This document shows positions 24,200 to 54,595 of a stretch of 64,000 nucleotides of DNA, one piece after another. The position numbers and the translations under genes are program-made. A model generated the notes under the pieces. The model was given only the letters and a program-made list of their open reading frames with translations. It searched no databases and was not told the DNA's origin. The stretch lies in IMG/VR virus record IMGVR_UViG_3300032267_001484; one strand, written 5' to 3'. The stretch comes from a virus. Every line of letters begins with the position of its first letter. Within the stretch, counting starts at the first letter, position 1.

Positions 24200-24577
24200 T
24201 TAAGTATTAGAAGCACTTGCAGTTACTTCATATGTTTTAGCAGGATTTCCAACCCATTGATAAGTAAACCCAGTACCTACTGTAGTAAATCCTGTAGGTC
24301 CTTGAGTAGACAAAGTTGTATTATCAGTAATGTTTTTAACTATTAAAGTCATAGTTACTGTTTTAGTTGGAATTGATTGAACAGCTATTGATACGCTTGC
24401 TGTCAAAGGGCTAGGACTATTAATAACATCAGTATCAGTACTAGTACTACTAAAATTAGTTAATGTTGTTACTCCTGATTTTAATGTAAATGGAACAACA
24501 GGAGGTGTTGTACCTGTTTTAGTATATGTTTGTCTAATAGTAATAGGAGAGGAGAATACCCAAATTTTATATGGCAT
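24200..24577 (-). CDS. Hypothetical Thr-rich beta-sandwich-like protein
   Basis: 125-aa Thr/Ser-rich ORF in the fibre operon. Confidence 0.6.
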   Translation of the reverse strand: MPYKIWVFSSPITIRQTYTKTGTTPPVVPFTLKSGVTTLTNFSSTSTDTDVINSPSPLTASVSIAVQSIPTKTVTMTLIVKNITDNTTLSTQGPTGFTTVGTGFTYQWVGNPAKTYEVTASASNT

Positions 24578-24594
24578 ATAATATTATATTAATT

Positions 24595-25188
24595 TTAAGA
24601 AGGAATAAAATAACCATTTGCTAATATGCAATATAATTTACTTCCACTAGCAGCATTGTATACATAATTATAATTAAATGATGTGTTAACAGTACCTAAT
24701 CCAAATCCATTATAGACAATTTTATCTGAGTTTATTAGATCATATCCCCCATCAACTTTCCAAGGTCTTCCATATATTATAAAAACATTCTCATTATTTT
24801 CGGAACTTCCAGATATATTAATGGAATAAGTTGTGTTAGTTGTTCCTAACTCTATAACTATCATACTTGAAGGATAGTTTTTATATAAAACATTAGCATG
24901 TTGATATAAAGATCCAGTTATTGCTGTGGGTATTTCTGCTGAATGGTTATATTGGTACCAAGCAGACATAGATAAATTTAGTAAAGGTAGTCTGGAGCTT
25001 TCATTAAATATACTTCCAGAAGATAAAATATTTATAGGAGCATACCCGGTATATGATAATCCACCACAACTAAAAATACTGGCTTCACCCCAAGTCCAGC
25101 CTCCCATTGCATAATTAATCATAGAACTTTGAGAAGTCTCAGTTCTAATCATACTCATTGATAAGGGTCCTGATCCTGGTAAGGCCAT
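24595..25188 (-). CDS. Putative tail fibre tip / adhesin-like protein
   Basis: N-terminus MALPGSGPLSMSMIRTE...LSMSAWY.Y resembles the attachment region of small fibre-tip proteins; downstream of the S74 fibre. Confidence 0.5.
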   Translation of the reverse strand: MALPGSGPLSMSMIRTETSQSSMINYAMGGWTWGEASIFSCGGLSYTGYAPINILSSGSIFNESSRLPLLNLSMSAWYQYNHSAEIPTAITGSLYQHANVLYKNYPSSMIVIELGTTNTTYSINISGSSENNENVFIIYGRPWKVDGGYDLINSDKIVYNGFGLGTVNTSFNYNYVYNAASGSKLYCILANGYFIPS

Positions 25189-25893
25189 TTATTTTTTTAT
25201 GTTTATAAGATGTTTCATAAAATTACCAGAGTATTCATGCCATCCTAAATGATTAGCATTTACTTCTGGGTGGACTAGTAATTGGCCTCCTAATTTTTTC
25301 CATAATAAACAGAATTGCCAGCTACCACTTTCATAAAAGCCGTCATTATTTATTCCGACTCTAAATAAATCATAAAAATCACCATCACCATATCCATCAA
25401 CATAATTTTTATATTTTAGTTCAGGGTGATTGTCTATTATTTTTTGTATGACTTCTCTCTTTATAAGTAAAAATCCAGGAGGGACATATTCTGCGTCTAA
25501 ATATTTATCTTCCGTAATTTTAATACTTCCCCCTGAGGTAAAATTAACATATTCTTGAGTAGGATCTTGTTTTATTCTATCCCAACAAATATACTTTTTA
25601 GGATATGCTCCACTTATCACCTCTTTTTCTGATTCAATTAGTTTAAGTATATCATGTGGTTCAAAAGATAAATCTGCATCTAAAAACAAAAGATGAGTAT
25701 TATTTGGGTCTTGCATAAAAAAAGACACAGCTGAATTTCTAGCCCTACCTACAGATGGATCAGAAAATATAGGATAGAATGATAAATCTAAATTACAGTC
25801 TTTTGCAAAACTAACTAGTTTTATCATAGACACCATGTATTCTGAATAACATGTGTGGTTATAACATATTAAAGGAATAAATATTTTTTTCAT
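25189..25893 (-). CDS. GT-A fold (GT2-like) glycosyltransferase
   Basis: IFIPLICYN, VGRARN, THLLFLDAD (DxD), GAYPKK, GFLLIKREV, FC..W...GG...V.P.V...H.G. Confidence 0.78.
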   Translation of the reverse strand: MKKIFIPLICYNHTCYSEYMVSMIKLVSFAKDCNLDLSFYPIFSDPSVGRARNSAVSFFMQDPNNTHLLFLDADLSFEPHDILKLIESEKEVISGAYPKKYICWDRIKQDPTQEYVNFTSGGSIKITEDKYLDAEYVPPGFLLIKREVIQKIIDNHPELKYKNYVDGYGDGDFYDLFRVGINNDGFYESGSWQFCLLWKKLGGQLLVHPEVNANHLGWHEYSGNFMKHLINIKK

Positions 25894-25912
25894 AACTAAT
25901 TAGTATAAATTA

Positions 25913-26296
25913 TTATTCAGTAACAGGAGAATCTGGTGTTGGTGTTGGTATATTAAGCCATGGAGCTTGTTGTATTAGTATTGGTGGATTGATTTGGTTT
26001 TCAATCTGCTGTTCTAATGAAGCATATATTCTATCAACAAAGCCAGGATTTTGCTCTTCCATAGAAGTAGTTACCCAATTATATACTATATCATAGGTAA
26101 GGTCTTGGAAGGGAATAAATGGGGTTGATCCATCATAAGGTGCTACGTTTTGAGTACCGATATTAGATGCTGTATAAGACCCAGTGCTAGCATATAACTG
26201 CCAGTGTACTAAGAATACAACATCTGTTTCTCCAGATGCAGTAGGATAAGATTCTAAAGGGTTAAAGCTCCATGTATAAGTAATATCTAATGCCAT
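25913..26296 (-). CDS. Tail fibre-associated protein (possible assembly chaperone)
   Basis: TYTW...DVVFLVHW...FIPFQDLT...V.NWV...QI.....P......PW; immediately after the S74 fibre. Confidence 0.55.
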   Translation of the reverse strand: MALDITYTWSFNPLESYPTASGETDVVFLVHWQLYASTGSYTASNIGTQNVAPYDGSTPFIPFQDLTYDIVYNWVTTSMEEQNPGFVDRIYASLEQQIENQINPPILIQQAPWLNIPTPTPDSPVTE

Positions 26297-26300
26297 TTCA

Positions 26301-29300
26301 CTATGTTTTATTTTGTAATAAATATTTTAATTCGTCTATCTGTTTTTGTTGTTCTTTTATAGCCTCAATTAATAGTGGTACTATTTTTTCATATTGTACT
26401 GTCAAATAATTTTCACCACTTATTGATTTATTATTTCCATCATTATCAAATGGAGCTAATTTAACAGCTTCAGGTAATACTGCTTGAACGTCTTGAGCAA
26501 ATACACCTACTAACAACTCTTCTGTATCGTAGTTAGCTACTTCTTTTGCTTTTTCATTCCAATTATAAGTAAATCCAGTTAGTTTATTTATTTTTTCTAA
26601 TGGCTTATCTAATATTTGTACATTATTTTTTAAACGTTTATCTGAAGCGTATGCTATGATGTCGGCTAAGGCTGATATAGTTCCATCAACTGCATTAGGA
26701 ACAACACCAACTCCAAGAGCCCCTGTATTAATTCTAGCATCTCCAATAACATCAAGTGGATAAGATGGGGTTGCATTAGCTATACCAACATTTCCTCCTG
26801 TAAAATAAAATACAGCTGCTGAATCTGAACCAAACACGTATTTTCCTGCATTATCTAAACCCGTATAAAATCTTCTAGTTCCAGCCCATGAATATCCTAT
26901 ATAACTCCAGCTACTATCTGTTGCATCTAGAGTTAACATTTGATCAGCGGTTCCACTAAATACACAAGATCCTCCTGATACATGTAATTTTACTGTTGGT
27001 GTTGTAGTACCTATACCAACATTGCCTCCACTAACAGTTATAGTCTCACTATTATTAGAATATAAGTGTAATTTACTTCCAACTCCACTTTGATAGCCTA
27101 TGTACATATCTTTATCACTGCCATTTAAAGAGTTTCTAATGACTCTTAAGTTAGCATATTGATCTGCTGTGGCTAAGTCAAGACCTTCTTGTGTTGCTGT
27201 TCCACCAATTACTAATTTAGCAGTTGTAGGAGATGTATTAGCTATACCTACATTACCATTATTATCTATTCTAACTTTTTCTCCTGATGTACTTCCGGCA
27301 GGATAAAAAGCTAAGACTGCAGATGATCCTGATGCTCCAGTGATTGTAGGTACTCCGGCTCCATATGTGTTTCCCCAAGTGAGATTATATGTATCTCTTA
27401 AAATTATACTTCCAACAACATCTAGTGTATCTCTTGGAGTTGATGTACCTATACCTACATTTCCTCGAGTATAATATACGTCACTACTATTTCTAACAAA
27501 ACTATTAACTTGATTATTTGTATTAGTTTGTGTTATATTTTTATCAGCAAATGTACTACTTTCAAATCCAACACTCCAAGATCCTGTCCAAGAAGGATTT
27601 AATCCAGAATAGCCTAAACTAACGTCATTTATATGAACTTGAGGATATGACCAAGTATCAGCTAATTCTCCTATAAAAACTACTATTTTAGATCCATCAT
27701 AACCAAATCTAACAGTGTAATTTGTATCTATTTGAGAATTTGATTCTATATAAGCAAAAGTATTATACCATGCACCAGATGAGGGATCTACAGGATAGTA
27801 GTTATATCCTCCAAAATTAACTGTAAATGAACTATTAGTTATATATTCATAAACAGTAATTTTAACACTATGCATTGTGTTAGTCCATCCTACAGGATAC
27901 GTAATTTTAATTGCACCTGTAACTGTAGCAGTTGTAGTATTATAATACCCTCCAAGAGGTTTTAATATTCTATAAAAATTTTGGTCTGTTATAGAATTAT
28001 CATTAGTGATAACATTACTTCCTAATAAGGATAATGATGATGTATAGTATAATTTACCCGTTGATGGGTCTACTGTCATTACATTGTTTTGGGTAGTATT
28101 ACTTAACCCAGTTAAATAAACATCATTATTTCCTCTAATTGCTCCATTTACATCTAAGGTATATGATGGAGATGTAGAATTTACTCCTAGTCTACCATTA
28201 TCATTATCCCATGTAAATTGATTACTTCCTGTTACATTTGATGTACTAGTCCAATAAGCTACTCTACTATTAGCACCAGTACCAGTTACAGTACCTGCTG
28301 AACCACCAGTAGCAGTTAGTGTTCCTCCTGATAATGATAGTCCAGATCCTACATTTATAGATGATAATTGGCCTGTTGAAGATGCTCCTACTATTCTATC
28401 TCCAGAACCTGCTAGTTTAGACAAAGTTATATTTCCATCTGTGGCTATAGCAAAACTAGAAGTCATTGATAAATCACTTCCTGCTGCAGTATTAACAGAT
28501 GCTCTTGTGTGTAAGAATGTTAATGTTCCTCCTCCTATATTTAATATACTTCTATCAGCAGAAAAATTATCAAATGTTGAAACATATCCTGCAGCTCCTG
28601 TTTTGCCTACAGCTCCATAGCCTAAAGTCATAGCACCAGTCGAATATTCTGATCCTAAAACATTAACATAGTCATTATTAGCTCCATCATAAGTTCTATA
28701 TAAGAAAGGTCCACCGTTAGTAGACGCGCCAGATCCTGCTTCTATAGCACCTACAACTGTTAATCTTTGATATGGTGTAGTTGAATTTATACCAACATTT
28801 CCACTAGCTGTAATGAATAATCTAGTAGAAGAATTAGTTAGTAAGTATATATTACCATTAGTTGATTCATTAGTTATATAAAAATCTGTAGATCCAACAG
28901 AAGGAAACCCTAAGTATGCCAATCTTCCAGCAGAGGCTGTTGGATACCATTGCATATAAGCATGGTTATTACCATATATGTTGAGGACTCCTGCATTGTG
29001 CTGTAAAGTTGTAGCCCCACCATTTACATTTAATCTTGCACTTGGTGATGTGGTACCTATACCAACATTACCACTAGTATCAATAAATAAAGATGAACTT
29101 TGAACATAATATGGTTTATTATTTGTTGTTGCATCATATCCTATTTGGTATCCACTAGTAGAACCACCATTATAAGCCATACCAGCAAACCATCTAATAT
29201 TAGAATCTGCAGTAGTCATATTAATACCCCTAGCTCTAACATCAGTATTTGATTTTAGTTCTATAAGAACAGCAGTAGCAGATGAAATTCCTGCTTTATT

Positions 29301-32300
29301 TCCCTCTATATAAACTACAGGAGTTGTATCAGAATTATCTTGAGACTCTATTCTTAACATTGAGTTGGTAGAGCCTGAAATATGGAGTTTTGATGTTGGG
29401 ATTGTAGTACCTATACCAACATTACCAGCACTTTGATACATTACACTACTGCTTAAAGTAGTAGCTCCAGTCCATAATGGAATATAGTTTGTTGCACCAC
29501 CTAAGACACTACCTGCACTTGGAGCAAAGGATGCACTTAAAGCATAACTTGAACTAATAGCTACTGATGCACTCTGTGCCCAGCTAGCAGTTCCAAATAA
29601 AGAACTAGTTATACCAGCTCCAGTAACATTTAAACTACCAGTTATACTTACTGAACCTGTAAATTGATGTGTATTAGTCAATAAACTACCAAAACGAGAG
29701 GACCCAGTAACAAAATTAACAGAAGATGTTACTGTTTGTACTATAAGAGTTTGTGCAGTAATAGTACCTGTTGATAATATATTAGAAGCAGTTACAGCAG
29801 ATGCTGATATATTTCCTGCTACTTCTAATTTTGCAGATGATGGAGTTACCCCTATACCTAAATTACCATTATTATCCAAAATCATCTTTTGGGTAAGAGT
29901 AGCTTGACCACCAACAGCAACTGTTTGTGAAGCACCAGTGAACCATCTAAAAGTATCACTCATTGCAAAAGCAGATCTTCCAATTGCTATTGTTGTTGAT
30001 GATTGGAAAGTATCAGCAGATGATGAAGGGGCAACAGCATATCCAAGAACAGGACCACCACTAGACTGATTTGTACCAAAATTAGTTAAATGTCCTGAAG
30101 TATATTGATCTTGTAATATTATTGATCCATTAACTGCTTGGGCATTACCTGCAAAAATAGTTCCACTAACATCTAATCTTGCTGCAGGGGATATAGTACC
30201 TATGCCAATGTTACTTGCGCTTTGGTACATTACGCTACTGCTTAAAGTAGTAGCACTATTCCATAATGGAATATAGTTTGTTGCTCCTCCTGAAACTCCG
30301 CTAGCGCTAAGAGCATTATTAGCCCAAGATGCTGTACCTTGTAGTGATCCTGTATATCCTAAAGTTGCTATTGAACTACCGGTTATAACTTCATTACCTA
30401 TTATATTTAATTCAACTGCTGCTGAACTAGATAAGGTAAGTGAACCTGTTATTATTTGATTACCTACAAATATATTTGAACCAGTTGTTGCAAAAACAGA
30501 AGATGCGGTTCCATTAAGTAAACCTGCATTAAATGCATAAGAAGCAGTTAATGCAAATGATGAACTTAATGCAAATGATGAACTCAACGTATAGCTACTA
30601 CTTAATGCAAATGATGAACTTATTGCTCTAGATGAGCTTTCAGCCCAGCTAGCTGTACCAATTAATGAACCACTAAATGATCCAGTAAATGAATGTGCCC
30701 ATACTCCACCACTAACATGTAATCTACCTAAAGAAGGTGTTGTAGTACCTATGCCAACTCTACCTACATTATCAATAGTAAAGAAGGCATATGATTGAGA
30801 AGCAACAGTATTACTTTCAGATCCAGTTAATCTTGCTACAACAAATTTGTCTGGGGATGGTTGGGTGCCGTATGGGTTTCCAAAAAACCAGTTAAAACTT
30901 TGAGCAGAGGTGTATGTGTGAATGCCATTACCACGAGCGTGGTCAACACCTCTCATCAATATTCTAGTAGCTAGATAATCAACATTAGTACTAGTTGCTT
31001 CTAAAACTAATGTTGTGTTATTGGATTGATTTTTATAAATATGAAAATCACCTGATGGTGTTAGTGTACCTACGCCAATATTGCTTGCACTTTGGTACAT
31101 TACACTACTGCTTAAAGTAGTAGCGCTATTCCATAATGGAATATAGTTTGTTGCACCACCTTGGATATTAGATGCAGTTAATGCATTTCGAGCCCAAGAG
31201 GCAGTACCAAATAATGAACCAGTTAAATTATTAATAGTAGCAGGACCATCCATATTTAATGATCCTGTTATAGTAACAGATCCTGTTATTTGATGGGTAT
31301 TAGTTGATAAACTACCATGTACTGTAGATCCTGTAATCTGTTCAGTAATAGATATGATAGTTGTTGCAACAATATTAGTTGCAGTTATTGTACCACTAAC
31401 ACTAAAATTGCCTGATATAAAGGTAGGGGCCCATGAAGCAGACAAGGCAAATGAAGCACTTGTAGCTATTGATGAAGAAAGAGCATAGCTACTACTTACA
31501 GCAAATGAAGCACTCTTAACACTATCAAACCCATAAGGACCAAATACACGAGATGAAGTTATCCAAGATGCACTTAAAGCATTATTAGCCCAAGATGCAG
31601 TACCTTGTAATGACCCTGTTATTGATCCTGAAAGTACAATTAGATTACCTATTATGGTTTCACTACCTGATATATTTAGTGATCCTGTAATGGATTGTAC
31701 TCCAATAACAACATTGGAGCCAGTAGTCATAAAAGCAGATGATGCGGTTCCATTAAGTAATCCTGCGTTAAAGGCATAGGCAGAAGTAACAGCAAATGAA
31801 GCACTTTTAACACTATCAAGTCCATAAGGACCAAATACATTTGATGAGCTTACCCACGATGCTGTTCTAGCATTAATTGCATTAGATGCAGATTCCGCGT
31901 ATAAAGCGTATGATGCTGTTGCTACAGAACCAGATTGGGATACAACTACATTGAATGTACTTCCATCACCTTTAGTAAAAGTAATTGTTGTGTTTACAGC
32001 AGATGCTGTTATTATACCTCGTAAAGGTAATGAAGATGTTTCGGCATATGATGCACTAGAGGCATAACTTGAACTAATAGCCACTGATGCACTCTGTGCC
32101 CAAGATGCTGTACCAAATAAAGATCCAGTTATGCTTCCACTAACTAATAAAGAACCAGTAACAGTTAAAGAACCAGAAATAAGAGCGTTTCCTGTAAAAG
32201 GAAAACCAGATCCGGATGAGCCAGGTGATCCAGAAATATTTGTGCTATAGTAAAATCTACCTTCACTATCAGCTACTACAACTCTATTTAATGAAGAACT

Positions 32301-32375
32301 TTCGGTAAGTGCTACTTGCAGTGTATTAAATCTAGCATTACCATCCATTCTAGGGATGTCGATGTATTGGGCCAT
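26301..32375 (-). CDS. Long tail fibre protein with C-terminal peptidase S74 intramolecular chaperone
   Basis: 2024 aa; many GNVGIGTT.P repeats; C-terminal SDKRLKNN...GFTYNW...GVFAQDV..VLPEAV...V.YEKIVPLLIEAIKEQQ. Confidence 0.88.
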   Translation of the reverse strand: MAQYIDIPRMDGNARFNTLQVALTESSSLNRVVVADSEGRFYYSTNISGSPGSSGSGFPFTGNALISGSLTVTGSLLVSGSITGSLFGTASWAQSASVAISSSYASSASYAETSSLPLRGIITASAVNTTITFTKGDGSTFNVVVSQSGSVATASYALYAESASNAINARTASWVSSSNVFGPYGLDSVKSASFAVTSAYAFNAGLLNGTASSAFMTTGSNVVIGVQSITGSLNISGSETIIGNLIVLSGSITGSLQGTASWANNALSASWITSSRVFGPYGFDSVKSASFAVSSSYALSSSIATSASFALSASWAPTFISGNFSVSGTITATNIVATTIISITEQITGSTVHGSLSTNTHQITGSVTITGSLNMDGPATINNLTGSLFGTASWARNALTASNIQGGATNYIPLWNSATTLSSSVMYQSASNIGVGTLTPSGDFHIYKNQSNNTTLVLEATSTNVDYLATRILMRGVDHARGNGIHTYTSAQSFNWFFGNPYGTQPSPDKFVVARLTGSESNTVASQSYAFFTIDNVGRVGIGTTTPSLGRLHVSGGVWAHSFTGSFSGSLIGTASWAESSSRAISSSFALSSSYTLSSSFALSSSFALTASYAFNAGLLNGTASSVFATTGSNIFVGNQIITGSLTLSSSAAVELNIIGNEVITGSSIATLGYTGSLQGTASWANNALSASGVSGGATNYIPLWNSATTLSSSVMYQSASNIGIGTISPAARLDVSGTIFAGNAQAVNGSIILQDQYTSGHLTNFGTNQSSGGPVLGYAVAPSSSADTFQSSTTIAIGRSAFAMSDTFRWFTGASQTVAVGGQATLTQKMILDNNGNLGIGVTPSSAKLEVAGNISASAVTASNILSTGTITAQTLIVQTVTSSVNFVTGSSRFGSLLTNTHQFTGSVSITGSLNVTGAGITSSLFGTASWAQSASVAISSSYALSASFAPSAGSVLGGATNYIPLWTGATTLSSSVMYQSAGNVGIGTTIPTSKLHISGSTNSMLRIESQDNSDTTPVVYIEGNKAGISSATAVLIELKSNTDVRARGINMTTADSNIRWFAGMAYNGGSTSGYQIGYDATTNNKPYYVQSSSLFIDTSGNVGIGTTSPSARLNVNGGATTLQHNAGVLNIYGNNHAYMQWYPTASAGRLAYLGFPSVGSTDFYITNESTNGNIYLLTNSSTRLFITASGNVGINSTTPYQRLTVVGAIEAGSGASTNGGPFLYRTYDGANNDYVNVLGSEYSTGAMTLGYGAVGKTGAAGYVSTFDNFSADRSILNIGGGTLTFLHTRASVNTAAGSDLSMTSSFAIATDGNITLSKLAGSGDRIVGASSTGQLSSINVGSGLSLSGGTLTATGGSAGTVTGTGANSRVAYWTSTSNVTGSNQFTWDNDNGRLGVNSTSPSYTLDVNGAIRGNNDVYLTGLSNTTQNNVMTVDPSTGKLYYTSSLSLLGSNVITNDNSITDQNFYRILKPLGGYYNTTTATVTGAIKITYPVGWTNTMHSVKITVYEYITNSSFTVNFGGYNYYPVDPSSGAWYNTFAYIESNSQIDTNYTVRFGYDGSKIVVFIGELADTWSYPQVHINDVSLGYSGLNPSWTGSWSVGFESSTFADKNITQTNTNNQVNSFVRNSSDVYYTRGNVGIGTSTPRDTLDVVGSIILRDTYNLTWGNTYGAGVPTITGASGSSAVLAFYPAGSTSGEKVRIDNNGNVGIANTSPTTAKLVIGGTATQEGLDLATADQYANLRVIRNSLNGSDKDMYIGYQSGVGSKLHLYSNNSETITVSGGNVGIGTTTPTVKLHVSGGSCVFSGTADQMLTLDATDSSWSYIGYSWAGTRRFYTGLDNAGKYVFGSDSAAVFYFTGGNVGIANATPSYPLDVIGDARINTGALGVGVVPNAVDGTISALADIIAYASDKRLKNNVQILDKPLEKINKLTGFTYNWNEKAKEVANYDTEELLVGVFAQDVQAVLPEAVKLAPFDNDGNNKSISGENYLTVQYEKIVPLLIEAIKEQQKQIDELKYLLQNKT

Positions 32376-32427
32376 GTTTAACCTTTAGTTCTCGTATAAA
32401 TATACTATAAAAAAAACAATGATTAAA

Positions 32428-33237
32428 CTATACTCCATATCTACCTCTTAATATATTAAAGTTTTGTGTAATTTCAGCTTGAGTGAGGGCGCGGTTATAT
32501 ACTATAAGAACACTAGCACTTCCTGCCATATAATCAGCTCCTGATGTTCCTGTTGTACCAAAAAGAGCAAAACTAATACGATCAGCAATTGTATCTAATC
32601 CATGGGTTCCAGTTCCCACAACATTGACTACTGTATTAGTGTTTTGAACTCCATTAACATATATTTTAACATCGTTTCCTGAATTAGGATATGTTCCGGT
32701 GTATGTTACTGTTAGGTTTGTCCATGATTCTACTGGTACATCATTTCTAGTAATGTAATATCTAAGGTTTGAGCCGTTAGAAACTGCACTAAATCCAAAT
32801 CCATTTTGGCCAGTTCCGTTTATATTATTTCCATATTCAATAAACCAACCTCTAGTTGAGTTATTATCACTTTTATACCAAATAATACATTGCTCATTTG
32901 CAGGAAATTTTAACCACATATCAACAGATAATGCACTTAATCCAGTAAGACTTGCTGATGAATTGAATAACATATAGTCATTTGTTCCATCAAAATTAAT
33001 ACTACTAAGAGCTCCAGCATTTGTATATGCAGGACCATTTATTAAGCTACCAGTAACACTTCCTGTTAGACTAAGCCAGTTAGTACCTGAGCCTGAGTAG
33101 CTAAGAGTATTTGCAGCGTCTAGATATAGTAAAGATCCACTTGTTACTATTCCTATTGGGGGAGGTGGATTATATACTTGTAATCCACTACCTTGAAATT
33201 GTCTATAAGAAGCAGGATTAAATATTGTAACAGGCAT
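32428..33237 (-). CDS. LamG/concanavalin A-like lectin domain protein
   Basis: IVTSG..LYLDAAN..SYSGSGT.W, FDGTNDY, W..LTVTY, IYVNG, YNRALT..EI.QNFN..RGRYG. Confidence 0.8.
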   Translation of the reverse strand: MPVTIFNPASYRQFQGSGLQVYNPPPPIGIVTSGSLLYLDAANTLSYSGSGTNWLSLTGSVTGSLINGPAYTNAGALSSINFDGTNDYMLFNSSASLTGLSALSVDMWLKFPANEQCIIWYKSDNNSTRGWFIEYGNNINGTGQNGFGFSAVSNGSNLRYYITRNDVPVESWTNLTVTYTGTYPNSGNDVKIYVNGVQNTNTVVNVVGTGTHGLDTIADRISFALFGTTGTSGADYMAGSASVLIVYNRALTQAEITQNFNILRGRYGV

Positions 33238-33249: not shown

Positions 33250-34779
33250 TTATCCTCTTGTTATATCGTATTGATGTGCTAGAAAATCTACTGAATGTAG
33301 CCTGGCTGTAGTTCCTATCATTTTTCCTATATGTGCTCCAAATCCTAAAGTAGAGCCTGATCTAGGAAGAGTGCCTGATATTTCAGTTGCTATAACCCAA
33401 GTAACACTATCTGTAGAGTAAAAATAAGTTGCTCTATCCCATGTTGAATTTACATATGTTCCTAACCATATATAGTTAGTATCAACTAATGGGCCTGTTG
33501 AAGACGATGTATAAGTAGAAGCAGAAATAGCAACTGCTGTCCAGTTAGGACCACTAAATCCTCTAGAACCAGCTACTGATCCACTATGATATTGCCAAGC
33601 AATAGCATTTGAAGCAGATGGAGCTGATGTTGAGTCGTGCCAACCAGAGTATATGTGATAAGCCTCTGCACCTGTAGATAAATTTGTTTGTGGTGCTATT
33701 CTACTTAAGCATATAGCTTGACCTCGTTGTGGGATTATGCTAGCGTCGGTTGCACCTATATTTCCACGACCGGTAGCAGTAGTACCTGTTGATATTTGAA
33801 CAGCACCTAATGGTCTTTCTGTAGTATTAACTAAATATGTACTTACTGCTGGTGTTGCGCCAGTACCTGAAAAAGTAGCTGTCCATACACCTGCTTGAAT
33901 ACCAGTAGTTGTGTTTGGGGAACCACCTAAAAAATCATCAAATTGGTCAAAGAATCCATTAAATCCAATATTACCTGATGATCCTAAAGGTTCCCATCTA
34001 GAGGAAATACTATCATACATTAAATGAATAGAGTCATTAGGTACTAAAAACACAACATTTCTAAAATCAAACCTATTTGCTGCTAAAGAAGATGTTGATT
34101 GGTCTTCTAGTATAATTAGCCTATCAGGAGAAGAATTTCTTAAAATAGCTATTCTACCACTAGTACCACCAGCTAATCCTGTTATTTTGATTGATCTACT
34201 TCCAGTTATATCTAATGTAGTTGCTTTACTTGGATCAGTATTATTCCATCCTGTAGGTGAGAAATCGTTTTGGTCTGTAGTTACAGATGCTGTTATAACA
34301 CTAAGTATAAATTGGTTTGTTTGTATATTTGCTACAACAGAACCACTTACTAATAAACTTGAGGTGGTAAAATTGTATACAGTAACACTACCAGAGGATA
34401 TAGTAGCAATAGTACCACTAGAACCAGTAACATCCGTTACCCTAAATAATTCACTTCGTGAGCCAGAAATACTAAAACTACCAGTAACCCTAAAAGAACC
34501 AGTAAATTCCATCACATCACCACTAAATTCTAACACATCACCTGCTATATCTAATACACTTCCTGAGGTATTAAATATACTTAATGATCCTGTTAATGTA
34601 ACACTACCTGAATTTGCAGCTCCCGTTGTTATAGTGGATTGAATAGTGTCTGAGCCGCTGCCTGATTTGCGGAAAAATATCCTTCCATCAGGTATATTCA
34701 TGGCTAGTTCCCCTATTACTAATGAAGCAGTAGTAGGGATTGAACCAGATGTTAAACTTCTTTTTTGTCTTATTGGCAT
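33250..34779 (-). CDS. Fibre/spike-like virion protein with N-terminal attachment domain shared with 49732-54357
   Basis: KRS...G.IPTT.SL..GELA.N..DG..F..KSGS N-terminus; C-terminal FDDF...jelly-roll-like domain. Confidence 0.6.
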   Translation of the reverse strand: MPIRQKRSLTSGSIPTTASLVIGELAMNIPDGRIFFRKSGSGSDTIQSTITTGAANSGSVTLTGSLSIFNTSGSVLDIAGDVLEFSGDVMEFTGSFRVTGSFSISGSRSELFRVTDVTGSSGTIATISSGSVTVYNFTTSSLLVSGSVVANIQTNQFILSVITASVTTDQNDFSPTGWNNTDPSKATTLDITGSRSIKITGLAGGTSGRIAILRNSSPDRLIILEDQSTSSLAANRFDFRNVVFLVPNDSIHLMYDSISSRWEPLGSSGNIGFNGFFDQFDDFLGGSPNTTTGIQAGVWTATFSGTGATPAVSTYLVNTTERPLGAVQISTGTTATGRGNIGATDASIIPQRGQAICLSRIAPQTNLSTGAEAYHIYSGWHDSTSAPSASNAIAWQYHSGSVAGSRGFSGPNWTAVAISASTYTSSSTGPLVDTNYIWLGTYVNSTWDRATYFYSTDSVTWVIATEISGTLPRSGSTLGFGAHIGKMIGTTARLHSVDFLAHQYDITRG

Positions 34780-34801
34780 ATCCTATATAAATATTAGTTT
34801 A

Positions 34802-35050
34802 TTATATTGGTTGATCGGGAAACCATCCATTATCGTTCATATACTGTTGATCTTTTAATTCTAGTATTTCTTGTTCTGTTAATAATGCTTCTTGTCCTTC
34901 CGGTATTTGCATTGCTCCTTCTTCTGTTGTTGGATGTTCAGTACATCCAAACCAATAAGTAGTTGTATCACCAGTACACCCTTGTGATACACATATTTCT
35001 TGTGATCTATTTAAGGCTAACTGCATTGTTGGGAATATTAAATATTTCAT
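34802..35050 (-). CDS. Hypothetical small acidic protein
   Basis: 82-aa ORF following a lectin-like gene. Confidence 0.62.
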   Translation of the reverse strand: MKYLIFPTMQLALNRSQEICVSQGCTGDTTTYWFGCTEHPTTEEGAMQIPEGQEALLTEQEILELKDQQYMNDNGWFPDQPI

Positions 35051-40676: not shown

Positions 40677-40689
40677 CTACGAATAAATA

Positions 40690-47352: not shown

Positions 47353-47360
47353 AATTTTAT

Positions 47361-47382
47361 CCTTTTTTCATGTTCCAAAAGG
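47361..47382 (-). promoter_or_regulatory. Leader hairpin with GGAACATGAA loop, 8 nt before the fibre start codon
   Basis: CCTTTT-GGAACATGAA-AAAAGG; counterpart at 40657-40676. Confidence 0.5.
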
Positions 47383-47408
47383 TCGACAATAAATATGTAC
47401 ATATCAAG

Positions 47409-48062
47409 CTATAGTCCGTATCTTGATTTTAAGGCTTCGTAGTTTTGTAGGACTTCTGTTGCTGGTAGGACTCGATTGTATACTTTTAAACAGTATAAAT
47501 TTCCTGTAAGTTGTTCATTAAATCCATTAACATCACTTCCTATTCTAAAATTAATATTTGATGGAATATTCCCTGTTAGAGTACCAGTATTATTTAATAG
47601 TCCATTTATATATAATCTAACATTTCCTGATCCATCCCTTGTTGCTGCCATATGATATGTTCCTAGTGGTAATGGTGCGTTTACTACATATACGGCACCA
47701 TTTATCCAAATACCATATCGTCCAGCAAACCAAACTCCTAAACCATATCCGTTTCCATAATTTGTAAAAATAGCTCCGTTTGAAGCTCCTGTCGTTTTAT
47801 AAAAAGACTCAATAGTAAAAGGATTTGTGCCTGCTATTATATTATTACTGTTTAAATCAGCGTAGTCATTAGTTCCATCAAAGACTATACTGCCACCATT
47901 AGCAGAATCAAAAGTAGGTCCATTCACTAATGATCCGCTATTTCTATTCCCGCTAACATCATTCCAAATAGTGGATCCAGGAACATAAGACCTTCTATTA
48001 GCTGCGTCTAAAGCTAAGACTAGTCCGTTGGTTATTATATTTGATCCTCCTATCGTAGCCAT
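47409..48062 (-). CDS. LamG/ConA-like lectin domain protein
   Basis: IITNGLVLALDAAN..SY.PGS..W.D.SGN...FDGTNDY...LYING...YNR.L...EVLQNY. Confidence 0.82.
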   Translation of the reverse strand: MATIGGSNIITNGLVLALDAANRRSYVPGSTIWNDVSGNRNSGSLVNGPTFDSANGGSIVFDGTNDYADLNSNNIIAGTNPFTIESFYKTTGASNGAIFTNYGNGYGLGVWFAGRYGIWINGAVYVVNAPLPLGTYHMAATRDGSGNVRLYINGLLNNTGTLTGNIPSNINFRIGSDVNGFNEQLTGNLYCLKVYNRVLPATEVLQNYEALKSRYGL

Positions 48063-48323: not shown

Positions 48324-49034
48324 TTATTCTGGGTTATATCGTGATTTTTGTCCTTCGTAGTTTTGGAAGATTTCTGTTGCTGAGAGTGCTCTATTATATA
48401 TTTGAAAATTATATATATTACCATCCATAATATCTGCTCCAGCTCTATATCCTATTTGAGTATTTCCCACATCATATGCTAAACTAACGTTTCCATCTGT
48501 TTGACCAGCATAAGATACTTCTAATCCATTATAGTATAATTTTATGTTGCTGTCTCCAGCATTAACTGTTGCAGTTATCATAAAAATTCTGTTTGCTGTT
48601 ATGTATCCTGTTGTTGATATTGCAAATTTTTGATCATTCCCAAGTGATATAAAAAAATCAGATCCATTATTCCCGGATGCAGTTATAAAAAATCCTTTAC
48701 CGGCACTGTAAGGATAACAATTACTTATTAGTGTTATTCTATTACCAAAACTTGTCGGTTGAGGAGTTGTTTTATTTAATCTAATCCAAGCATTTACTGT
48801 AAATCTGTTAGATACATTTACATTTAAAGCAGTAACTACAAAATCATCGACTCCATCAAACACAATACTCCCTAAATTAGCAGAATTAAATGTAGGTCCA
48901 TTAATTAAAGTACCATTATTCCTATTTCCGCTTAAATCTCTCCACGTTGTAGAACCATTAACGTATGATTTTACATTAGCAGCATCTAATGATAGTACTA
49001 ATCCATTTGTTATTGTATTGGGTCCTGTAAACAT
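48324..49034 (-). CDS. LamG/ConA-like lectin domain protein
   Basis: Conserved blocks; FTVNAWI...LYYNG core. Confidence 0.82.
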   Translation of the reverse strand: MFTGPNTITNGLVLSLDAANVKSYVNGSTTWRDLSGNRNNGTLINGPTFNSANLGSIVFDGVDDFVVTALNVNVSNRFTVNAWIRLNKTTPQPTSFGNRITLISNCYPYSAGKGFFITASGNNGSDFFISLGNDQKFAISTTGYITANRIFMITATVNAGDSNIKLYYNGLEVSYAGQTDGNVSLAYDVGNTQIGYRAGADIMDGNIYNFQIYNRALSATEIFQNYEGQKSRYNPE

Positions 49035-49037: not shown

Positions 49038-49730
49038 TTATAAGTTAAAGCGTCCTTTTAGTGCGTTATAGTTTTGTAGTATTTCTGATGCTGATAGGGC
49101 ACGATTATATACTTGAGCAACTGCATTATACCCACTTGTAAAAAGGGAAGTACTTATACTTCCTATCCACCATCCATTTGTTGATGTTCTTAAACTTGTA
49201 CCAGATGTTAATACTGTTCCGTCAAGAACTCCATTTACATAACATTGAATTGATGAGCCTGCTATCCAAACACCAGTAATATAATACCATGTATTAAGTG
49301 CTAATGTAATTGTACCTGTTGTTCCTAATCCAACAACTGATGGCACTGTAGGTACAACTGCAGCTTGAGCAATTCCACCAGTAGTGATACTTAATTGTAA
49401 GCTCCATCCACTACCGGCACCATCTCTACCCCTTCCTAAAATATATTTTACTTCAGAATAATTATCATTATTAAACCAAGCAGAAAAAGTATAACTATCT
49501 GCTGCTGAACCTGAATAAGGTGTAGATATCCAATCATCAGTTCCATCAGTAAATATACTTCCTCCATTGGCACTATTAAATGTAGGTCCATTAGTTAATG
49601 TTCCTATAATATTATTTCCACTCAAATCTCTCCAAGTAGTTCCACTACCCGGATAAGATTTAGTATTAGCTGCGTCTAAAGCTAAAACAAGTCCATTTGT
49701 AACTATATTTGGTCCTCTTTGAAACGCCAT
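49038..49730 (-). CDS. LamG/ConA-like lectin domain protein
   Basis: Conserved blocks; TFSAWF...NTWYYITGVW...YVNG core. Confidence 0.82.
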   Translation of the reverse strand: MAFQRGPNIVTNGLVLALDAANTKSYPGSGTTWRDLSGNNIIGTLTNGPTFNSANGGSIFTDGTDDWISTPYSGSAADSYTFSAWFNNDNYSEVKYILGRGRDGAGSGWSLQLSITTGGIAQAAVVPTVPSVVGLGTTGTITLALNTWYYITGVWIAGSSIQCYVNGVLDGTVLTSGTSLRTSTNGWWIGSISTSLFTSGYNAVAQVYNRALSASEILQNYNALKGRFNL

Positions 49731-49731: not shown

Positions 49732-52700
49732 TTATAACATTCTTACTAGTGATCGAATAGTCCAAGCGTTATTTGATGCTGTCGCTTGTAATTGTATGTT
49801 ACTTCCGCTAATTGCGGCTTGTAAAGTTACTCCAGCAGTTGATCCACCAACATCTCCTGTGTAGTTCTCATAGTATTCTGCGTAAGAAGCACTCCAAACA
49901 GAATAAATTGTTCCTGCTCTAGCGATTGAGCCGCTAAACATTACGTAATCGAAGAAGGCAGCTCTATAAGAAGCAGTAGGTTCTGAAGAAATTACTCTCC
50001 ATGATCCTGAAGTTACATTGGTGTTTTCTTGAAACTCTATATTAGTATTTCCTACATTTAAACTTCCACTTACATAGAAATTAGTAGCATATGAGGCGGT
50101 TGCTGCGTAAGAAGCACTAACAACAGATCCAAGTAAGGTTTGAGCTGTTGTAGCGTATGAAGCTGTTACTGCGTTTTGAGCCCAACTTGCAGTGCCAAAT
50201 AAAGAACCAGTAAACCCTAAAGTAGATGTTGTAGATCCAGTTATTACTAAACTACCAGTAATTAAAGCAGAACCAGTAAATGGAAAAGAAGCGCCTCCAC
50301 CTCCTGTGGCGTTGATAGTAACAGATCCTGTTCCACTTGTAGGAGATATAGTTACATTTGTACCTGCTATAATTTGAGTAACGCCACCATTTAAAGCATA
50401 AGATGCTGTTATTACATTAGTAGCCCAACTTGCAGTACCGAAGAGAGAACCTGTGAAGTTAGTTGCAGTTATAGAACCAGATATGGATTGAGAGCCAGAA
50501 TTAGTTAATACTTCTTGCCAACCTGGAGTGGAACCAGAATTGTACATCCATAGACCTTCTGTTGCTGAGTCTATGTCGTATACTAGTAAACCTCTGGCAG
50601 GAGTTCCTATAGCAGTTCTTTGTGCTGCAGTCATCCTTGGAGCAAGGAAACCTTGATCAGTAGAATCAACTTGCAGCATTGAACTTGTGTGCATGTTAAG
50701 TGCATTAGCAGTAGCTGTAATTAATGCTCTATTTGATAATAAACCTAATGATACGTTACCTCCAGAAGCTCCACCGGCTGCATATATTGAAGCACCTTGA
50801 TTGTTATTATTACTAACACCTAAACTACTATATGCTTTTATACCTACTGCTGATGTGACTTGTATACCAGTTGCACCATTATGGCCTGTATTTAATACTA
50901 CCATTGTAGTACCACCAACAGTATACCTATCTACATAGAATGTACTATCTCCATTTAATATTCTACCATCATTTCTAGCTATAAGTGTTGATACTAAGTT
51001 ACTATTTACTATATTTAATCCATTAGTACCACTAGTAGCTCCACTACCAGTAATAACCATATCACCCGCAAATCGACTAGATCCTGATACATCTAGTCTA
51101 AATGATGGTGATGCTGTACCTATACCAACATTGCCAGAACCGCTTACATAAAATACACTTCCAGCAGTTGAGGAATTTATTAAAAATAAAGAATTATCAG
51201 AACCAGATACATGAAGTCTAGCAGAAATAGTCTGATCATTTCCCCCAATGCGTACTCCAGCTGATGTCATGTGCATATATTGGGTTGCACTAGAGTACGC
51301 TGTAAGCGTTATTCCTGAGTTATTTCTAATAATAAGCCTGTTTCCTGTTCCGTAGGTATCTATAAAAGAATCCGATCCTCCAGGAGTAAGAGACATATTT
51401 GTTGCTCCAGTATTATAAAACCCAGTTAGAGTTATTGTAGAGTTAGCACTTGAAGTCATTCCTATACTTCCTGTACCTAAAGAATTAGTTATTAATACTG
51501 TACCTTGATTTGATAAACTACCAGTTATACTTACTGAGCCAGTAAACTGATGTGTATTAGTTGATAAGGAGCCGAATCTTGTTGATCCAGTTACAAAATC
51601 AGTAGACGATGTAATAGTTTGAGCTACAATTGTTTGTGCTGTAAGGGTACCCCTAACTAAGAAGTTATCGGCACTAGATGCTGTTGCAGCAAATGATGCA
51701 CTTATTGCATTAAGAATATAAGATGATGTTAATGCATTTTGAGCCCAACTTGCAGTTCCAAACAATGATCCTGTAAAGTTAGTTGCATTTACGCTTCCAC
51801 TAATACTGAGTGAGCCTGTTACAGTATGAGTATCAGTGATTGTATTACCTATAGTTACACCTGTGTTTGTAACTTGAAACTCAACTGAACTACCGGTGAT
51901 GACTGTTAGTGAGCCTGTAATGGCTGTATTTCCTGATAGTTTTGTTGAGCCAGATACTTGTAGACGTTCACCAGAATCAGAAGTTGAGCCTATTGCAAGA
52001 TTGCCTGTTGAGAATAAGCGCATCTTTGAATTTGCAGTAATAGCAAAATCTATTGTATTAAGATTCAGAGTATCTATTCCTGTTGGTGTTAATACTAAAA
52101 TAGAATTACCACCTGTTGGACTTTGAATCCACATGCCACTATTGCTATATATATGCAAAGGTCTTTGTGGTGCATTAGTTCCAATACCTACATTACCAGA
52201 TGAGGATACATATAATATGTTGGCTAATGTATTACTATCTATTTCAAATAGACCTCCAGTAGTTCCTGATACATGTAGTAAAGCTGTAGGAGATAAATGT
52301 CCTATTGCTACTCTATCACTTGCAACTACAAAAGGATAACTAGTTGCAGTATTACCTAAAAGTACTGCGGAACTTCCTCTCATTCCTACATTTACTCCAC
52401 TAAAACCAGCATAATATAATGCCCCAATATATTCTGCGTAACTATAAGCTAACTGCCCACCAACAGCACCATTCAATGTAAAATTTGTACCACTTCCTAT
52501 TGTAAATGCAGATGTTCCAGACACTCCAACACCAGCTGTAATAGTAGCACTGCCAGTAATAACCATATTACCAGCAAACTTACTAGAACCAGATACTTGA
52601 AGACGATCGCCTGAGTCTGTAAAAGTGCCTCCGTCTTGTATTAAAACATTACCATTTCTAAATATTCTTAACTTTTCAGATACAGTTGAAACATTTCGTG

Positions 52701-54357
52701 TAAAAAATCCTAATCCAACACTATAAGATGATTGGTCAACAGTTGTTATAGACGCGCCACTCGCAGCATCTGATGCTCCAAAAAATCTCAATGAAGTTTC
52801 AACAGCAGTACCCGCAGCACCATTCGGTCTTACTATTATGTTTCCTGCTAATGTTATTACACCCAAATTACTTGGCGTATTAGTCCCTATCCCCAATCTC
52901 TTATTAGTATTATCCCAAAAGAAATTAGTGTTATCTTCTGCAATATTATCTGTAGCTCCAGCAAACAATACACTTCCAGTAGATAAATAAGGAAGAGTTA
53001 AACTTCCAGTAATACTAACAGAGCCAGTAAACTGATGAGTATTACTTAATGAACTACCAAATCTAGTTGATCCAGTAACAAAATCAGTACTTGAGGTTAT
53101 AGTTTGAGCTACAATTGTTTGAGCAGTTAATGTTCCCCTAACAGTAAAATTATCTGCAGATGATGCAGTTGAAGCAAACGAAGCAGATACTGCTTGAAGT
53201 ACATAAGATGATGTAGTTGCATTATTTGCCCAACTAGCAGTACCAAATAATGAACCAGTAAATCCTTGAGTTGCACTTAATGAACCAGTTAATTCATGTT
53301 GATTATTTGGGTTTAATTGGAGCTTCTTATTAACATTACTATCGATACCACCTGCAAAAAATTGTATTGGATAATTAGAAGCATTTCCTATGTGTAAATC
53401 ATTACCTGTTGAATATAGGTAAGCATCATTAGCATCTCCAACTAATCCACTCTGGTTATAGTTAGAGTTATTAATACCCATATTAATAAAATAGGTATTT
53501 TCTGTTGATAAGTTATTTGAAGCAACTATATCAGCAGAAGCATTATTTCCTGTGCTTCTATTTATTAAGTTAAATTGACTATAATAGTTTACATTACTTT
53601 TAGCTGTGATAAGATTATAAGTACTATTATTTACAGCTTGTACTAATAGTGCTTCTGGAGCACCAGGTGTAGGGGTGGAGGTATTAATACTTACTGATCC
53701 TTGAGGATCAATATATAATCTTGCATTGGCATAAGCATTTTCACCACCAGTAAAAATAATTACACTTTTATTGGGATCGGTATTTCCTATTAATAAATTA
53801 CTACCAGTAGTATATAAATAACCATCTAATGCATTACCTATAGCTCCAACAACCCCATATCCGGAGTTATTAATACCCATATTAATATAACCTTGAGTTT
53901 CATCTCCAGACTCAGCTGTTGCTACTATGTCTGAGGAAGCATAGAGACCATTTGCAAAATTTTTTATATTTAATTGAACATAATTATCTATATTAGCATG
54001 ACCAGATATTAAGTTATATGAATCTGTTACACCAGCATTAACTAAAAAACGTTCAACAGATGTATGTATAGATGCTGTAGCTCCTATTGCAGTAAATGAT
54101 CCAGAATCGTAAATTGAGCTAGTAATTAAACTAGAAGTAGTATTAAATACAGGAATAAAAAAAGCAGATCCTGTTGCTGTAATATTGCCTGTACCTGTTC
54201 CTAATGTAACAATTTGTTCACCATTAGAACCTGACTTTTTCATAAAAGCCAGACCATCGTATGTATTAAGGGCTATCTCACCAAAGTCGAGAGAAGAAGT
54301 AGTAGGGATTCTACCAGGTACCGCAGAGCGGCGTAATTTCAAAAATTGATTTGACAT
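49732..54357 (-). CDS. Large Ser/Thr/Gly-rich fibre protein
   Basis: 1541 aa; N-terminal KLRRSAVPGRIPTTSSLDFGEIALNTYDG; FFWDNTNKRLGIGT; STDQGFLAPRMT.AQR.AI..PA.GLLVYD module; C-terminal domain shared with 43048-47352. Confidence 0.72.
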   Translation of the reverse strand: MSNQFLKLRRSAVPGRIPTTSSLDFGEIALNTYDGLAFMKKSGSNGEQIVTLGTGTGNITATGSAFFIPVFNTTSSLITSSIYDSGSFTAIGATASIHTSVERFLVNAGVTDSYNLISGHANIDNYVQLNIKNFANGLYASSDIVATAESGDETQGYINMGINNSGYGVVGAIGNALDGYLYTTGSNLLIGNTDPNKSVIIFTGGENAYANARLYIDPQGSVSINTSTPTPGAPEALLVQAVNNSTYNLITAKSNVNYYSQFNLINRSTGNNASADIVASNNLSTENTYFINMGINNSNYNQSGLVGDANDAYLYSTGNDLHIGNASNYPIQFFAGGIDSNVNKKLQLNPNNQHELTGSLSATQGFTGSLFGTASWANNATTSSYVLQAVSASFASTASSADNFTVRGTLTAQTIVAQTITSSTDFVTGSTRFGSSLSNTHQFTGSVSITGSLTLPYLSTGSVLFAGATDNIAEDNTNFFWDNTNKRLGIGTNTPSNLGVITLAGNIIVRPNGAAGTAVETSLRFFGASDAASGASITTVDQSSYSVGLGFFTRNVSTVSEKLRIFRNGNVLIQDGGTFTDSGDRLQVSGSSKFAGNMVITGSATITAGVGVSGTSAFTIGSGTNFTLNGAVGGQLAYSYAEYIGALYYAGFSGVNVGMRGSSAVLLGNTATSYPFVVASDRVAIGHLSPTALLHVSGTTGGLFEIDSNTLANILYVSSSGNVGIGTNAPQRPLHIYSNSGMWIQSPTGGNSILVLTPTGIDTLNLNTIDFAITANSKMRLFSTGNLAIGSTSDSGERLQVSGSTKLSGNTAITGSLTVITGSSVEFQVTNTGVTIGNTITDTHTVTGSLSISGSVNATNFTGSLFGTASWAQNALTSSYILNAISASFAATASSADNFLVRGTLTAQTIVAQTITSSTDFVTGSTRFGSLSTNTHQFTGSVSITGSLSNQGTVLITNSLGTGSIGMTSSANSTITLTGFYNTGATNMSLTPGGSDSFIDTYGTGNRLIIRNNSGITLTAYSSATQYMHMTSAGVRIGGNDQTISARLHVSGSDNSLFLINSSTAGSVFYVSGSGNVGIGTASPSFRLDVSGSSRFAGDMVITGSGATSGTNGLNIVNSNLVSTLIARNDGRILNGDSTFYVDRYTVGGTTMVVLNTGHNGATGIQVTSAVGIKAYSSLGVSNNNNQGASIYAAGGASGGNVSLGLLSNRALITATANALNMHTSSMLQVDSTDQGFLAPRMTAAQRTAIGTPARGLLVYDIDSATEGLWMYNSGSTPGWQEVLTNSGSQSISGSITATNFTGSLFGTASWATNVITASYALNGGVTQIIAGTNVTISPTSGTGSVTINATGGGGASFPFTGSALITGSLVITGSTTSTLGFTGSLFGTASWAQNAVTASYATTAQTLLGSVVSASYAATASYATNFYVSGSLNVGNTNIEFQENTNVTSGSWRVISSEPTASYRAAFFDYVMFSGSIARAGTIYSVWSASYAEYYENYTGDVGGSTAGVTLQAAISGSNIQLQATASNNAWTIRSLVRML
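51950..52190. repeat. 241-bp near-identical direct repeat, copy 2
   Basis: See 46076-46316. Confidence 0.9.
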
Positions 54358-54406
54358 ACTAGTATATACTAACGGTGAAAGCTATATATATAGCCGTTAA
54401 TAAATA

Positions 54407-54595
54407 TTAGAAATCGCCTAAGTCTAATGTAAAGAAGCTACCACTATCACCAAATGAATCGATATTTTGAATTGATAGTGAGCCAGTTTGAGTTGGGGTT
54501 GAAACTACTTGAGCGGAACCACTAATAACAAGGTTATTAGATCCACTGTTATAGGACATATTAGATAGTAATTGTTCTAGTCTTAATCGTGCCAT
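54407..54595 (-). CDS. Hypothetical small protein ending DLGDF
   Basis: 62-aa ORF coupled to the upstream gene; C-terminus resembles the DIDGGFY end of fibre 36033-38225. Confidence 0.6.
   Translation of the reverse strand: MARLRLEQLLSNMSYNSGSNNLVISGSAQVVSTPTQTGSLSIQNIDSFGDSGSFFTLDLGDF

Follow-up and report, generated by a model that had tools for sequence, protein, structure and literature searches.

Gene content of the fibre array

We analyzed a 64,000-nucleotide stretch of viral DNA (IMG/VR record IMGVR_UViG_3300032267_001484; hereafter the window), in which positions 24200 to 54407 hold 22 closely spaced open reading frames (ORFs), all on the minus strand. The whole region is a multi-fibre host-recognition gene block, organized in six cassettes, each headed by a gene for a long fibre or spike protein. 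Two of these cassettes combine a fibre with three proteins of about 220 residues carrying a laminin G-type (LamG) domain and with a small protein of 86 residues, termed P. This combination of a fibre, three LamGs, and P is a conserved module recurring in hundreds of phage contigs. In transcription order, with slashes separating the cassettes, the ORFs encode proteins of 1541, 230, 236, 120, and 217 / 1434, 219, 250, 220, and 87 / 639 and 151 / 730, 326, and 82 / 509 and 269 / 2024, 127, 234, 197, and 125 residues. The number, order, and lengths of all 22 ORFs agree with the original prediction, which had been derived from the nucleotide sequence and had described the region as an array of fibres for receptor recognition; this description is borne out. 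An octamer, ATATTTAT, precedes each of the six fibre genes, and we return to it below. The features are as follows.

49732 to 54357, minus strand: fibre F1541, 1541 residues, mosaic shaft; ATATTTAT at 54400-54407, 43 nucleotides upstream; the C-terminal domain CTD-1 is formed by the last ~100 residues (49735-50034)
49038 to 49730, minus strand: first LamG of cassette 1, 230 residues, PF13385; 67% identical to the third-position LamG of another phage locus (L006)
48324 to 49034, minus strand: second LamG of cassette 1, 236 residues, PF13385
48062 to 48322, minus strand: protein P of cassette 1, 86 residues from Met35 of a 120-residue ORF; its stop codon overlaps the start of the next LamG gene
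47409 to 48062, minus strand: third LamG of cassette 1, 217 residues, PF13385
43048 to 47352, minus strand: fibre F1434, 1434 residues; ATATTTAT at 47389-47396; N-terminus in common with F639; CTD-1 is formed by the last ~100 residues (43051-43350)
42379 to 43038, minus strand: first LamG of cassette 2, 219 residues, PF13385
41624 to 42376, minus strand: second LamG of cassette 2, 250 residues, PF13385
40957 to 41619, minus strand: third LamG of cassette 2, 220 residues, PF13385
40690 to 40953, minus strand: protein P of cassette 2, 87 residues; small alpha/beta fold in the predicted model
38728 to 40647, minus strand: fibre F639; ATATTTAT at 40683-40690; N-terminus of the type found in F1434 and in gp047 of phage immuto
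38265 to 38720, minus strand: accessory ORF of 151 residues, no family
36033 to 38225, minus strand: fibre or spike F730; ATATTTAT at 38232-38239, 7 nucleotides upstream; matches tail spike and virion structural protein PHROGs
35053 to 36033, minus strand: protein of 326 residues; N-terminal part a GH54-like beta-sandwich, LamG match below threshold, PHROG 10356 ("virion structural protein")
34802 to 35050, minus strand: ORF of 82 residues, no family
33250 to 34779, minus strand: F509; ATATTTAT at 34787-34794; N-terminus in common with F1541
32428 to 33237, minus strand: single LamG, 269 residues, PF13385; a more distant paralogue with a longer N-terminus, 29-32% identical to the other six
26301 to 32375, minus strand: fibre F2024 with a C-terminal Peptidase_S74 domain; ATATTTAT at 32396-32403
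24200 to 26296, minus strand: four accessory genes, namely DUF7936 (127 residues), a 234-residue protein (PHROG 1574, weak GT2 match), and ORFs of 197 and 125 residues with no family

An all-against-all BLASTP comparison revealed that the six long fibre or spike proteins are mosaics built from common shaft modules, and it confirmed the sharing of termini proposed for three fibre pairs. The C-termini of F1541 and F1434 are 33% identical over 183 residues (E = 5e-17), whereas the N-termini are shared in other pairs, F1434 with F639 (44% identity over 95 residues) and F1541 with F509 (43% over 77 residues). These common N-terminal domains probably set where a fibre attaches, with two kinds of site on the virion. 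Searches of the fibre N-termini against Pfam and PHROGs did not turn up a known adaptor domain, gp10-like or otherwise.

Conservation of the three-LamG and P unit

The Laminin_G_3 family (PF13385) was found above its cut-off in all seven proteins that had been designated LamG, i.e., the six from the two triplets and the 269-residue protein, with scores of 41.6-78 bits against a cut-off of 27.6. Their relatives among solved structures, as retrieved by a profile search, include LamG domains, the lectin domains of sialidases, pentraxins, and the lectin-like domains of neurotoxins. To follow the LamG genes in other phages, we scanned viral contigs with one LamG (233 relatives, of which 77 loci were kept) and, in a second and independent scan, with P (at least 486 relatives, 80 loci kept); loci seeded with CTD-1 came from single-sequence scans. 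In the LamG-seeded loci, the LamG genes lie in runs behind large ORFs. Exactly three LamGs were present in 38 of the 69 complete and non-redundant runs, one in 16, two in seven, and four in two. The P-seeded loci gave a very similar result: 68 of 70 P-containing runs adjoin a LamG, and 33 of 56 complete runs contain exactly three LamGs. The most frequent gene orders in these loci, LLPL (20) and LLLP (10), with L denoting a LamG gene, are the two arrangements present in the window. Runs of one, two, four, six, and seven LamGs also occur among the LamG- and P-seeded loci.

The module is present in a cultured phage, Flavobacterium phage vB_FspM_immuto (immuto), which is a 160-kb myovirus. Its only such cassette consists of a 587-residue fibre, LamGs of 220 and 233 residues, a 458-residue LamG protein with an insertion, and a P of 112 residues. 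The gene following this cassette encodes a fibre with an N-terminus matching those of F1434 and F639. The linkage between the shared C-terminal domain, the LamG triplet, and P, whose absence from related genomes had been named beforehand as a ground for refutation, is thus real and kept in related genomes. We found no description of the combination of a LamG triplet with P in phages in the literature searched, and this add-on to a fibre was apparently undescribed before.

An alignment of 102 LamGs from 34 triplets revealed a sharp division within the domain. The first ~65 and the last ~28 residues are constant, with a mean identity of 59%, and the central ~120 residues are hypervariable, with an identity of only 18.6%. 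Cores within one triplet are 18.7% identical and are therefore no more alike than random pairs, whereas the constant ends are slightly closer inside a triplet (65%). In the window, the constant ends of the cassette 2 LamGs are 74-78% identical, and the likeness within the triplet of cassette 1 is weaker. These conserved ends coincide with the strands that open and close the LamG fold, which rules out the idea, also considered, that the LamGs possess a docking domain of their own. In relatives that keep the fibre end (73% identity), P (92%), and the N-terminus of the next fibre (81%), the LamGs are only ~42% identical to those of the window, and this match runs solely through the constant frame. 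Judging from these sequence comparisons, the LamGs look like exchangeable specificity modules, swapped by recombination at their conserved ends. Some LamGs of the family carry insertions of 170-340 residues inside the fold, either behind its first strand or in the variable core, and keep their constant ends (L138 2431-4239, L125 3427-5250, L097 4001-5290, and L091 1255-2592).

We found no three kinds of LamG tied to the three positions in a triplet. The LamG tree holds only a marginal position signal (44 label changes; 49.8 ± 2.8 with shuffled labels), and near-identical LamGs sit at different positions in different phages. Position-specific subfamilies were ruled out, as only one of the 34 triplets holds all three clusters of the constant region, compared with 5.4 expected by chance.

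Protein P is strongly conserved. The two P proteins of the window are 80% identical by BLASTP, and their alignment indicates that P of cassette 1, given as 120 residues in the original prediction, starts most likely at Met35 (position 48322). The ORF is present as described, and the protein would comprise 86 residues, which removes an overlap of 101 nucleotides with the upstream LamG gene. The family includes at least 7,997 sequence clusters, all unnamed and none with a Pfam domain. The predicted structure is a small alpha/beta domain with a predicted local distance difference test (pLDDT) score of 89, for which Foldseek found no match in the PDB at E ≤ 0.001; only uncharacterised viral proteins are alike. 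P is rarely fused to other proteins. We found eight proteins of more than 153 residues carrying P, mostly on contigs shorter than 1.3 kb and with unrelated Pfam domains. The sole example from a long contig with P at the C-terminus is a 764-residue protein (P0122) on a 106-kb metagenome contig, in which the partner is fibre-like and not a LamG. In P0122, residues 566-631 correspond to the module found at the N-termini of F1434 and F639, and P retains its own Met in frame; the protein probably represents a lost stop codon, not a true fusion.

LamGs also exist as fused units. The protein gp5 (960 residues) of the Synechococcus siphovirus S-SKS1 contains four fused LamG units, and the next gene encodes a P that is 57% identical to that of the window. 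A metagenomic protein of 761 residues consists of three tandem LamGs. The S-PM2 protein p176 comprises a beta-propeller, a carbohydrate-binding module (CBM), and two C-terminal LamG units of the same family as the LamGs of the window; it is annotated as a "virion structural protein", an annotation that we could not trace to primary proteomics.

Proposed attachment and role of the LamG proteins

CTD-1 comprises ~100 residues and always occupies the extreme C-terminus, in fibres of ~500 to 2852 residues. A LamG run begins at most 200 nucleotides after a CTD-1 fibre in 17 of 19 non-redundant cases, with gaps of either 1-9 or about 200 nucleotides. In the CTD-1-seeded loci, six of eight non-redundant fibres are directly followed by a LamG run, usually in the order LLLP. 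No Pfam match was obtained for CTD-1. The model of CTD-1 from the end of F1434 is an all-beta sandwich (pLDDT 88), which VIA-align relates to C-terminal domains from tailspikes of Acinetobacter phages, from the Klebsiella phage Kp9 fibre gp42, and from baseplate proteins of the gp9 type (Z scores of 10.7, 9.6, 9.2, and 8.3), and Foldseek to 1qex_A (TMq 0.65, E = 1.5e-3). On the basis of these matches of the model to tailspike and fibre C-termini, CTD-1 is a knob of the conventional type that forms the distal end of trimeric fibres or spikes.

A second C-terminal domain is found at the end of the immuto fibre gp052 (L079 13956-15719) and of seven fibres from metagenomes, each with a LamG triplet behind it, at loci including L001, L021, L047, L054, L068, and L072. 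Its signature is LEGPE...LP[DE][YH]W...TPIG...ERKD, and there is no Pfam model for it. The L021 fibre of this type contains seven collagen-repeat stretches, which indicate a trimer. Fibres ending in CTD-1 are thus mostly followed by LamGs, yet the units of LamGs and P are not tied to CTD-1.

We consider it slightly better than even, with a probability of about 0.55, that the LamGs serve as exchangeable lectin heads in cooperation with the preceding fibre, that P is an assembly factor or adaptor, and that each virion has several glycan specificities. The constant first and last strands of the LamGs would provide a common framework and the hypervariable cores the specificity, so that heads acting together with the preceding fibre would bind glycans through variable surfaces built on one frame. 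P would be the conserved assembly factor or adaptor of the LamGs, and a single virion would display several specificities for surface glycans. Host range would shift by the replacement of whole LamG cassettes, with recombination at the constant ends. We infer that the LamGs are virion parts, that they dock physically on the end of the fibre, that P has the role given here, and that glycans are bound. Three genes per cassette would suit the end of a trimeric fibre offering three equivalent sites, but not a defined heterotrimer. A more specific form of the proposal, which we regard as tentative and as less likely than not, has a trimeric fibre end with three freely swappable LamG heads, held or assembled by a universal 86-residue P, so that up to three glycans could be read per fibre. 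It further holds, equally tentatively, that the fold of P is novel among solved structures, that the system is spread over many aquatic phages with Bacteroidota and cyanobacteria as hosts and with several tail types, and that swaps of a single cassette rewire host range.

Several observations weigh against an attachment of the LamGs to the preceding fibre with the help of P. Fibres with other C-terminal domains likewise have LamG triplets and P behind them; one triplet lies behind a fibre ending in S74, an end that is normally cleaved off, and some lie behind small non-fibre genes. Docking to CTD-1 is therefore not general, and CTD-1, if it serves for docking in the first place, is not the sole partner. 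The original prediction had made the shared C-terminal domain together with P the platform for the LamGs; the linkage on which it relied stands, but the triplets with P behind other fibre ends show that such a platform would not be general. The LamGs bring no separate docking domain. Fifteen of the 38 LamG-seeded triplets have no adjacent P. We found no fusions between CTD-1 and LamG in long LamG proteins, nor between P and LamG among the proteins of more than 153 residues that carry P. Gene linkage can also stem from co-regulation or from modules that recombine jointly, and the virion presence of the free LamGs and P is likewise something that we infer. A complex predicted for P and the LamG triplet of cassette 2, each chain with an alignment of its own, scored too close to a control that kept two LamGs and speaks neither for nor against binding.

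The main rival explanation is that the three LamGs and P form an autonomous adhesin unit mounted elsewhere, on the baseplate, neck, capsid, or another fibre, and travel with fibre genes because host-range genes cluster and recombine together. The occurrence of triplets with P behind at least three unrelated fibre ends and sometimes behind small non-fibre genes speaks for such a unit, as does the fused LamG protein of S-SKS1, which follows a 169-residue "tail fiber protein" and not a long fibre, and as does S-PM2 p176, in which a beta-propeller, a CBM, and two LamGs make up a multi-lectin protein complete in itself. However, CTD-1 fibres almost always have a LamG run directly behind them, only the two CTD-1 fibres have triplets within the window, and each LamG consists of one domain without a visible extension for anchoring. 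We regard an autonomous unit as a possible but considerably less probable account. It is rather unlikely that the LamGs, P, or both are non-virion proteins, either chaperones of fibre assembly or lectins acting at the host surface during infection, for example in superinfection exclusion or in the binding of released glycans. The small size of P, its extreme conservation, and the near absence of fusions would fit an assembly factor, and chaperone genes commonly follow fibre genes (T4 gp38/gp57A, Mu/P2 Tfa). Yet a constant frame with hypervariable cores, together with wholesale swaps between close relatives, is the signature of receptor binding and not of a chaperone, the S-PM2 protein with LamG units of the same family is labelled as a virion structural protein (with the caveat on that label given above), and the genes belong to operons that begin with a fibre gene and form part of the structural block.

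The original prediction had also raised a heterotrimeric tip. Such a fibre tip would contain one copy of each LamG in defined, non-equivalent positions organized by P. The sharp mode of three genes per cassette, the existence of a tandem fusion of three LamGs, and the plausibly trimeric nature of the LamG-associated fibres, one of them with collagen repeats, would be in line with it. Three position-specific types of LamG would be expected, but the LamG tree shows no position-specific clades (44 versus 49.8 ± 2.8 changes), the constant regions are not of three types (one of 34 triplets with all clusters versus 5.4 expected), near-identical LamGs change position between phages, and runs of one, two, four, six, and seven LamGs exist. 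A defined heterotrimer is thus left without support, and we consider it the least probable of the explanations.

Genomic setting and comparison with known systems

The major capsid protein encoded in the window (59076-60734) has its best match in the immuto capsid protein, at 57.6% identity, followed by remoter T4-type capsid proteins. Head and adaptor genes are located upstream of the array, and genes for the sheath, tube, tape measure, and tail lysin downstream; the order of head and adaptor genes, fibre array, and tail genes is the same in immuto. The contig containing the P of the window has a length of 170,876 bp. The phage is an aquatic myovirus of ~171 kb related to Flavobacterium phage immuto, with a T4-type capsid protein, and no near-identical genome was found in the cultured-phage collection. 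Shine-Dalgarno sequences are almost absent before the start codons of the window, which would fit a Bacteroidota host. In the tail and baseplate block, a 1064-residue protein (10459-13653) ends in a domain resembling endolysins (PHROG 17001, E = 5e-32) and is, judging from this match, probably a tail-associated lysin.

As for the remaining genes of the array, F2024 carries the expected Peptidase_S74 domain at residues 1911-1972 (Pfam, 55.7 bits against a cut-off of 22, E = 6e-15) and also matches tail-fibre PHROGs. The 127-residue protein proposed as its partner is a DUF7936 protein (E = 2e-22). The glycosyltransferase assignment of the 234-residue protein was not upheld, as its GT2 match stays below the Pfam gathering score (19.7 bits against 23.3, E = 8.7e-4) and the family that it matches best, PHROG 1574, has no known function; neither Pfam nor PHROGs gave family support for the 197-residue ORF that had been called tip-like. 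The 326-residue protein shows a partial match to the GH54 beta-sandwich and a sub-threshold match to LamG, so the term lectin-like applies only loosely. Neither F730 nor this protein has sequence relatives among solved structures.

The octamer ATATTTAT occurs 32 times in the window against 16.9 expected, with 26 copies on the coding strand. Intergenic DNA, which makes up 4.2% of the window, accommodates 19 of these 26. Copies precede genes of the head and tail as well as those of the fibres. As had been predicted, all six fibre genes have a copy, which lies on the coding strand 7-43 nucleotides before the start, whereas the LamG and P genes have none of their own and are separated within the cassettes by gaps of 0-9 nucleotides. 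Because the motif lies ahead of most operons of the window, it is neither fibre-specific nor special to the array, and it is best read as a general promoter-like element of the structural gene block that heads each fibre operon. Some copies are located only 5-8 nucleotides from the ATG, implying very short or absent leaders. The T4-type late promoter consensus, TATAAATA, is not matched; the window motif, ATATTTAT(A/T), resembles it as a single AT-rich octamer and differs in sequence. No enrichment of sigma-70-type promoters was seen. No intrinsic terminators were found between the cassettes, which are therefore not insulated from each other despite their own ATATTTAT starts. The view of the cassettes as separately promoted thus holds insofar as every fibre gene has its own motif, but the motif is shared with most other operons and no terminators set the cassettes apart.

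Between the tube, chaperone, and tape-measure genes, two strong terminator-like hairpins of 10 and 13 pairs (19464-19491 and 20514-20543) are each directly followed by ATATTTAT (19456-19463 and 20498-20505); the fibre array contains no such terminator-promoter pair. The leaders of F1434 and F639 (47353-47390 and 40648-40684, minus strand) both present GGAA-NN-UGAA in a small hairpin with different stems, and these hairpins are thermodynamically ordinary (z = -0.44 and -0.04). An additional ATATTTAT at 26318-26325, within the last codons of the F2024 gene, precedes the DUF7936 gene by 22 nucleotides, and this accessory gene may have its own start signal.

The finding belongs with systems of accessory adhesins and of multiple receptor-binding proteins. 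In T-even phages (T2, T6, and S16), the gene for the small tip adhesin gp38 lies directly downstream of that for the distal fibre protein gp37; gp38 has constant and hypervariable parts, and adhesin exchange changes host range. The LamG genes, directly downstream of fibre genes, have the position of gp38- or Tfa-type tip adhesins, and the likeness extends to the constant and hypervariable parts and to the presumed change of host range by exchange. The window differs in having three adhesin genes per fibre and an additional conserved partner of 86 residues, with attachment to the fibre presumed. Neither the LamGs nor P matched adhesin or chaperone families of the gp38 or Tfa type in Pfam and PHROGs. 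As in the branched tailspike and fibre systems of CBA120 (TSP1-4), G7C, phiK64-1, and further myoviruses with multiple receptor-binding proteins, several receptor-binding proteins are encoded in one block and share N-terminal modules that presumably set their attachment, but the diversity in the window comes from small stand-alone lectins and not from enzymatic tailspikes. BppA of the lactococcal phage Tuc2009, like similar accessory baseplate proteins, is a separately encoded carbohydrate-binding module that is added to the receptor-binding device and widens its binding repertoire. The LamGs resemble it as separately encoded add-on modules, but fold family and phage type differ, no homology was found, and the module of the window consists of a conserved three with a dedicated small partner. 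The LamG units of S-PM2 p176 and S-SKS1 gp5 belong to the same family, including the constant ends (E = 1e-20 to 1e-52); there, the units are fused, whereas those of the window are free single-domain proteins behind a CTD-1 fibre.

Outside phages, Streptomyces umbrella toxin particles are reported to carry several diversified lectins each on a common scaffold, providing a bet-hedging range of cell-surface glycan targets (PMC13274773; 10.1101/2025.04.24.650519). The likeness is an analogy only, to a bacterial toxin particle that is not a phage and has unrelated scaffold proteins.

Since immuto has been cultured, on Flavobacterium sp. LMO8, and possesses a single cassette, the model is directly testable. 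The analysis also provides a first functional context for the P family, which is large and has neither a Pfam model nor a solved structural relative. No property of environmental phages is harder to predict than host range. If the proposed role of the LamGs is true, very many uncultured aquatic phage contigs would carry a recognizable specificity unit with a ~120-residue variable core on a constant frame. The prediction of host range, the discovery of glycan targets, and modular engineering would then become tractable.

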